Positions 53,910 to 55,724 of a DNA stretch of 64,000 bases are shown one piece after another. Below the pieces are notes generated by a model. That model made no database searches. It saw only the letters and a program-made list of their open reading frames with translations, and was not told where the DNA came from. The position numbers and the translations under genes were made by a program. Source of the stretch: Escherichia coli (GTDB taxonomy: Bacteria > Pseudomonadota > Gammaproteobacteria > Enterobacterales > Enterobacteriaceae); NCBI RefSeq assembly GCF_041248615.1, contig NZ_CP158426.1; one strand, 5' to 3'. Each line of letters begins with the position of its first letter. Positions within the stretch are counted from its first letter, which is position 1.

Positions 53910-55724
53910 CTACTCTCCCTGTTGTCTGGCTGAAGGCAGTTTGGCCGCTTTATTAACGTCATACCACCAGGTATCGATACCCAGGCTGTAAACAGGGCGT
54001 ACAGCGGGTTGGGAGAATTTATCCCACCAGGCGAGACGGTCTTCCGCCATGTACCACATTGGCAGCATGTAATAATTCCACGTTAATACGCGATCCAGTG
54101 CTCGCCCCAACGGCAGTAATTTTTCTTTATTTCCCTGCGCGGCAATAATTTGATTGATCAGCGAGTCGATAACCGGGCTTTGCACGCCGGGGGCATTATA
54201 AGTGGAATTGATATATTCCGATGACCAGGAAATCTGTAAATCGGAACTGGGCTACGGCATCGCCCGCCATACGCGCGGCATCATGTCATAGTCGCGACTG
54301 CGCATGCGGTTGGTGATTTGCGAGTTATCCACTTTGCGAATGTCCATGTTGATACCCAGCCGTTGCAGGCTGTGCTGGAACGGCAATACCCACTGACTAT
54401 TGCTGCTCGAAGGTAGCAATAACTCAAAGCTGAGCGGCTGACCCGTTGTGGCATTTACGCGTTGCTGACCCTTCAGCACCCAGCCCGCTTCGTTGAGAAG
54501 TTTGTCGGCTTTTAACAGGTTGTCACGATCGTAGCCATCGCCTTTGGATACCGGCGGCTGGTAGATTTGTGTGAAGACTTCTGGCGGTAGATCTTTTTTC
54601 ATTGGTGCCAGAAGCACCAGCTCCGCGGCGTCGGGGTAATTTCTGGCCGCGTATTCGGTATTCTGAAAATAACTGTTCGTGCGACTCCAGGCATTGTAAA
54701 ACAACGCTTTGTTCATCCATTCAAAGTCAAAGGCGAGAGTGATCGCTTCCCGCACCCGGCGATCGCTGAATACCGGACGTTGGATATTAAACGCCAGCCA
54801 GCGCGTATCCTGGGCTGATTCGTTCTTTTGCTCATCTTTGATGATGTATTTCTTATCGAAATTTTTACCGGTATAGCGCGTGGCCCAGTTTTTGGCGTCG
54901 TTTTCCATACGCAAATCAAAGGCACCGGCTTTAAACGCTTCAAAGGCGACATTATCATCGAGGTAATAATCGTAGCGAATGGTGTCGAAATTCCAGCGTC
55001 CACGGTTTACCGGTAAGTTTGCTGCCCAGTAATCTTTCACGCGGGAATAGACAATATTTTGCCCCATTTTCCAGGACGTAATTCGGTACGGACCACTGGC
55101 AAGCGGAGGCGTGGCGAGCGGGTCGCTAAGTTTGTGATCCTTCCAGTACTTTTCTGGAAAGACCGGCAGCGAAAACAGACTCAGCATATCTTCTTTGCCG
55201 GGTTTAGCTAACTCAATGCGCACGGTTAACGGCGCAATGGCTTTGACGGTGGTGCCTTTGTAGACCAGACGAAATTGCGGCACGCCTTCGGTCATAAATT
55301 TTTGAAAAGTAAACTCTACATCGCGGGCAGTAATGGGCGAACCATCATGAAAACGGGCGAGCGGATTAATAGCGACCTCCACCCAGGAATAATCGTCAGC
55401 ATAGCGTGCACTTTCAGCAATCAGCGGGTAATAACTGCCTGGTTCGTCATCGGAAGTCGTAAATAGCGTGTCGTACAGCTGCTCGGTGCGTGCGCCCGGG
55501 TTGCCGCGCAGTGCATAGCGGTTGAAATTATCGAAGGTACCGAGGGCTGACAACGTTATCTGCCCACCTTTTGGTGCGGCGGGGTTCACATAATCAAAAT
55601 GGTTGAAATTAAACGCGTACCGGGGTTCGCCCAGCACGGCAAAGGCATAGCTTTCCTTGATAGCCTGCGCCTGCGCACCGAAGGTGAACAGAGCGATAAA
55701 CAGCAGCAGTATGCGCACAATCAT
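53910..55724 (-). pseudogene. yejA: yejA periplasmic substrate-binding protein gene interrupted by one in-frame TAG
   Basis: A single minus-strand frame is open over about 604 codons except for TAG at 54252-54254 (plus-strand cta). Upstream part is a 490-aa signal-peptide-bearing SBP; downstream part continues ...PSSDLQISWSSEYINSTYNAPGVQSPVIDSLINQ... to the natural stop abutting yejB. Confidence 0.85.

Follow-up and report, generated by a model that had tools for sequence, protein, structure and literature searches.

The window analysed here, a 64,000-nucleotide stretch of Escherichia coli DNA (contig NZ_CP158426.1), carries on its minus strand the yejABEF operon, in which the gene for the binding protein YejA is interrupted by an in-frame amber codon. 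Read on the minus strand, 55724..53910 translates as a single YejA frame of 604 codons without a frameshift, whose sole internal stop is codon 491, a TAG at 54254..54252 within the coding-strand sequence ...CGG GCG ATG CCG TAG CCC AGT TCC GAT.... The codons preceding it (54255..55724) specify a shortened product of 490 residues, comprising the signal peptide and mature residues 1-471. The 113 codons following it (53913..54251) are all YejA. They specify what remains of lobe 2, together with the hinge segment 540-542 and the C-terminal portion of lobe 1, and end at the natural stop, which is likewise a TAG (53912..53910) and is directly abutted, in frame, by the ATG of yejB. The remaining genes on the same strand are intact: the permease genes yejB (52815..53909, WP_000501604.1) and yejE (51790..52815, WP_001590366.1) and the double ATPase gene yejF (50199..51788, WP_001590367.1) all encode the RefSeq proteins of E. 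coli isolate 362, and the YejB protein is also identical in isolate M217. The program-made list of open reading frames (ORFs) breaks yejA in two, a 492-residue ORF at 54252..55730 that begins at an upstream TTG and a 91-residue ORF at 53910..54185 that begins at a GTG; in the same list yejB and yejE are complete, and yejF lies in an ORF enclosing the annotated gene. An earlier note on this DNA had described a TAG at 54252-54254 on the minus strand without a frameshift, some 113 codons of YejA beyond it up to a stop abutting yejB, and an otherwise intact operon. The translation bears out all of this, the number of codons being exactly 113.

Comparisons with public genomes showed that the window, and with it the yejA locus, is 100% identical to the E. 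coli NRZ14408 chromosome (NZ_LT599825.1), with no differences over the 13.8 kb around yejA. The window corresponds approximately to positions 1,763,672-1,827,671 of that chromosome, and window position 54253 to NZ_LT599825.1:1817924. NRZ14408 is a carbapenem- and colistin-resistant clinical isolate, as given in the title of Falgenhauer et al. (Antimicrobial Agents and Chemotherapy, 2017). The RefSeq annotation of its chromosome (Prokaryotic Genome Annotation Pipeline, PGAP) flags yejA at 53910..55724 (locus R2K29_RS08690) as a pseudogene with the remark "internal stop", and lists yejB, yejE and yejF as normal genes. The nearest complete genome is that of isolate 362 from Madrid (NZ_OW967178.1), which has three differences from the window in the 13.8 kb. 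Its yejA, annotated as intact (WP_001590365.1), is identical at 1,814 of 1,815 bases, and the sole difference is a C at 54253 that makes codon 491 TGG (Trp). The outgroup M217 has C at this position as well. Because both relatives carry C where the window has a plus-strand T, a single G:C-to-A:T transition is derived on the NRZ14408 branch, and the G-to-A change from TGG to TAG proposed in the earlier note (plus-strand C to T at 54253) is upheld. The resulting change is W491* in the precursor, which is W472 in the mature protein.

The stop allele is confined to this strain. Of 5,246 genomes in which the region is present, only that of NRZ14408 contains an exact copy of a 61-mer centred on the site and carrying T, and the wild-type 61-mer was found exactly in 4,322 genomes. 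Similarly, a 33-mer centred on T, which as a megablast query seeds a match only where T is present, matched NZ_LT599825.1 and no other of the 5,426 complete genomes of E. coli, which makes the stop a specific single-base difference from 5,425 genomes and not a chance feature. As in a nonsense pseudogene, one stop interrupts a frame that is open in intact orthologues, and the homology to them carries on in frame beyond it. These results make us highly confident that W491* is a real, recent and strain-private nonsense mutation of NRZ14408 that turns yejA into a pseudogene. It is an ordinary single-strain pseudogene, already flagged by public annotation, and holds no new biology.

The intact frame is a clear member of its family. 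The isolate 362 protein matches the solved structures PDB 8FSR, 7Z6F and 7ATR over residues 20-604 (E = 0), and Pfam PF00496 (SBP_bac_5) covers residues 98-502 (E = 7e-65), placing the stop inside the domain. NCBIfam gave no equivalog at its cutoff for either the intact or the stop allele. The sequence match, the SBP_bac_5 domain and the operon with two permeases and a double ATPase assign the locus to YejA and the cluster C family-5 solute-binding proteins. However, the complete ORF with both lobes and both hinges that characterizes a functional member is missing, and the locus is a yejA pseudogene. The orphaned C-terminal segment has no recognizable identity of its own in the searches made: the 91-residue ORF has no precomputed Pfam match, the 113-codon segment has no NCBIfam match, and there is no signal peptide.

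Conservation around the stop was assessed in a MAFFT alignment of the intact protein with 143 homologues, consisting of 135 full-length cluster representatives (33-49% identity) and eight enterobacterial orthologues. All 143 run 98-162 residues past column 491. The possibility that YejA normally ends at this position and that the 113 codons form a separate gene, which the earlier note had named as fatal to its reading, is ruled out by this extension of at least 98 residues and by the solved structures, which span 20-604. Nor does the 113-residue peptide match an NCBIfam family by itself. Positions near the stop are almost invariant (P492, G/S493, E/D495 and N510), whereas column 491 itself is variable, with Ser in 57 sequences, Thr in 21 and Trp in 12. 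The expectation that the stop replaces a conserved Trp therefore holds within enterobacterial YejA, the only group that keeps Trp here, and fails for the distant homologues, which mostly have Ser or Thr. As Trp is conserved in close relatives only, YejA would probably accept any residue that rare readthrough put there.

In the published structural description of YejA (PMC10924461), lobe 1 consists of mature residues 1-286 and 540-579, lobe 2 of residues 287-539, and the hinges of residues 282-287 and 540-542; the bound peptide touches Ser475, Asp476, Thr489 and Tyr490, among others. W491 of the precursor corresponds to mature W472, the first residue of the motif W-P-S-S475-D476. Translation ends at precursor residue 490, which is mature residue 471 of 585, and mature residues 472-585 are gone. 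With them go the contacts Ser475, Asp476, Thr489 and Tyr490, the second hinge segment (540-542), the last 68 residues of lobe 2, or its final third, and the strands at the C terminus with which lobe 1 is completed. Removal of the contacts, the hinge and the lobe 1 C terminus points to a misfolded, non-functional binding protein. In the periplasm the shortened YejA would misfold or be degraded, and would fail to deliver substrate to YejBEF. Judged from the residues lost, W491* YejA is expected to be a null binding protein.

The stop may also affect the downstream genes. It leaves 342 nucleotides of yejA mRNA upstream of yejB untranslated, the first 78 of which contain 24 C and 14 G. Expression of yejBEF may drop through loss of coupling at the TAG-ATG junction, and Rho-dependent polarity is possible; a polar effect on yejBEF is speculative. 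As for the phenotype, E. coli becomes resistant to microcin C when any single one of its four yej genes is deleted, as PMC10924461 reports with reference to Novikova 2007, and with yej deletions the minimum inhibitory concentrations (MICs) for another peptide antibiotic rise 2- to 8-fold (PMC13372681). Loss of YejABEF-dependent peptide uptake would give microcin C resistance, and by analogy with these deletions NRZ14408 is probably microcin C resistant.

Whether the mutation was selected was considered against the other changes on the NRZ14408 branch. Over the approximately 60.6 kb of the window shared with isolate 362 and polarised by M217, there are six NRZ14408-private single-nucleotide polymorphisms (SNPs), all transitions and five of them G:C to A:T: atoS R79R (9594), rcsD L549L (14625), an intergenic change (24796), bcr A208V (48950), yejA W491* (54253) and lpxT V14V (59193). 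Besides the yejA change, the set comprises three synonymous changes, one intergenic change and one conservative missense, the latter being a private change in an efflux gene (bcr A208V), and the set as a whole looks like ordinary drift. A mutator signature was considered and no claim is made for it, as a sample of six is too small and G:C to A:T is also the commonest spontaneous class. Instead of neutral decay, W491* could be an adaptation of a pan-resistant clinical clone, with loss of function favoured in the patient or the gut, either by shutting YejABEF against microcin C-type Trojan-horse peptides from competitors or from the strain itself, or because lipid A modification by mcr-1 makes the antimicrobial-peptide role of YejABEF dispensable. 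The microcin C resistance of strains that have lost any yej gene (PMC10924461, citing Novikova 2007), the 2- to 8-fold rise in MICs for the other peptide antibiotic (PMC13372681) and the colistin- and carbapenem-resistant clinical background stated in the 2017 title would all suit such a selection. However, the mutation arose once, in one strain, which is no evidence of selection; the site is not hit again in 5,426 genomes, and the remaining five private SNPs of the window fit neutral drift. An adaptive origin is regarded as unlikely.

If the NRZ14408 reference were wrong at this base through sequencing or assembly, and the strain truly had TGG, the allele would also stand in one complete genome only, which is the pattern observed. 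However, the exact 490-residue product is present on nine contigs in public data, two of which were retrieved and compared. One is the chromosome of a second NCBI assembly, GCA_014863425.1 (5,345,375 bp, compared with 5,344,876 bp for LT599825). The other, 42.7 kb long, comes from SRA run SRR12326972, whose short reads were assembled de novo in Logan. Neither differs from the window (100% identity), over 19.7 kb for the former and 11.6 kb for the latter. The private SNPs 48950 T and 59193 A are both present in GCA_014863425.1 as well; the Logan contig starts at window position 52433 and has 59193 A. Both represent renewed sequencing of the same strain or clone. In addition, the change is a substitution, unlike the homopolymer indels typical of long-read errors. 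The recurrence of the ORF in these two assemblies makes a base-calling artefact, which the earlier note had left as an alternative, very unlikely, and only a slight chance is given to an error in the reference.

Suppression of the amber codon by a tRNA of the host, giving full-length and functional YejA, is rated lower still. The variability of column 491 speaks for it, in that homologues hold Ser, Thr, Trp, Ile, Val or Ala there and any inserted residue would probably work. However, the suppressor alleles that the earlier note had proposed to look for are missing from NRZ14408. A tyrT query with a CTA anticodon, corresponding to supF, had no exact match in 5,441 records; the query is validated by the wild-type copies, each a single base away from it. 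The supE allele (glnV with CTA) was found exactly in 155 records, and among the 40 listed nearly all are named K-12 laboratory strains or derivatives. In NRZ14408 the metT-leuW-glnUW-metU-glnVX cluster lies at 3,745,900-3,746,603, and ARAGORN assigns its Gln tRNAs the anticodons TTG, TTG, CTG and CTG, all wild type; with CTG in both glnV and glnX, supE is absent. The only tRNA in the window itself is a Pro-GGG. Thus, at the loci checked, supE (glnV) and supF (tyrT), the strain has no CUA-anticodon tRNA that would make it sup+. Amber suppressors are moreover very rare in natural isolates, and one that read codon 491 would also read the natural yejA TAG through into yejB. Programmed recoding at the UAG was rejected, as the stop occurs in one of 5,426 genomes and all homologues have a sense codon there.

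Some points nevertheless weigh against a plain nonsense pseudogene in NRZ14408. The suppressor check covered two loci, supE and supF, of a set that also includes serU, leuX, trpT, lysT and other tRNA genes, and the tRNA examination covered about 0.1 Mb of the 5.3-Mb genome. The variability of residue 491 in distant homologues means that low-level natural readthrough would yield functional protein in small amounts. Finally, GCA_014863425.1 and SRR12326972 may share one laboratory stock with the reference, in which case the mutation could have been acquired in culture.

The significance of the W491* pseudogene is local. Antibiotic discovery work uses NRZ14408 as a multidrug-resistant strain for testing, as in the determination of darobactin MICs (PMC8694152). 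With a broken YejA, it would be ill suited to revealing the activity of peptide or peptide-nucleotide compounds that rely on YejABEF for entry.

Elsewhere in the window, the only pseudogene besides yejA is yejO, an autotransporter gene (39467-41698) that is flagged as partial. A 768-bp IS1 element lies at 38705-39472, with an IS1B-family transposase at 38760-39457, in place of 523 bp present in isolates 362 and M217, and this insertion accounts for the loss of the yejO promoter and 5' end. Isolate 362 (NZ_OW967178.1) carries a prophage of about 41 kb in a tRNA-Pro gene (approximately 2,600-44,200 of the retrieved segment) that NRZ14408 is without. The corresponding site in the window is at approximately 41,770-41,850, beside the tRNA-Pro(GGG) gene at 41800-41876, and differences clustered at 41770-41791 form an attachment-site scar. 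The ecotin gene eco (24825-25334) is annotated with starts 21 nucleotides apart, giving 510 nucleotides in NRZ14408 and 489 in isolate 362, with no sequence difference in the gene; this looks like an annotation inconsistency and not biology. Outside the window, positions 3,600,000-3,606,000 of NZ_LT599825.1 hold a prophage tail and baseplate module with no bearing on yejA.

At the junction of yejA and yejB, the protein database contains rare fusion ORFs of 969 residues (P0001-P0010, among which P0009 has 965 residues and is without the junction residues). Those of 969 residues have Leu, Ser, Tyr, Gln or Trp in place of the natural stop, each one base from TAG. The fusions may be genuine stop-loss alleles or artefacts of assembly.

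Comparison with other public yejA lesions, which include shortened products of 333, 429, 461 and 541 residues as well as the 969-residue YejA-YejB stop-loss fusions, showed that W491* shares with them the character of a sporadic, isolate-specific lesion of yejA. However, their positions and mechanisms are different, some being truncated or chimeric products and others the result of losing the natural TAG, and W491* is found in none of them. Like the laboratory yej knockouts, made by transposon or from the Keio collection and resistant to microcin C, W491* would leave a transporter without its binding protein. In contrast to them, it is a natural point nonsense mutation in a clinical isolate that may be leaky or polar, and its phenotype is predicted. 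The closest known system is E. coli YejA itself (PDB 7ATR, 7Z6F and 8FSQ-8FSS), with which the frame shares about 99% identity over residues 20-604, the same signal peptide and the operon order pdeN-yejA-yejB-yejE-yejF-yejG. The difference from it is that codon 491 is TAG and not TGG, leaving 490 of the 604 residues translatable.
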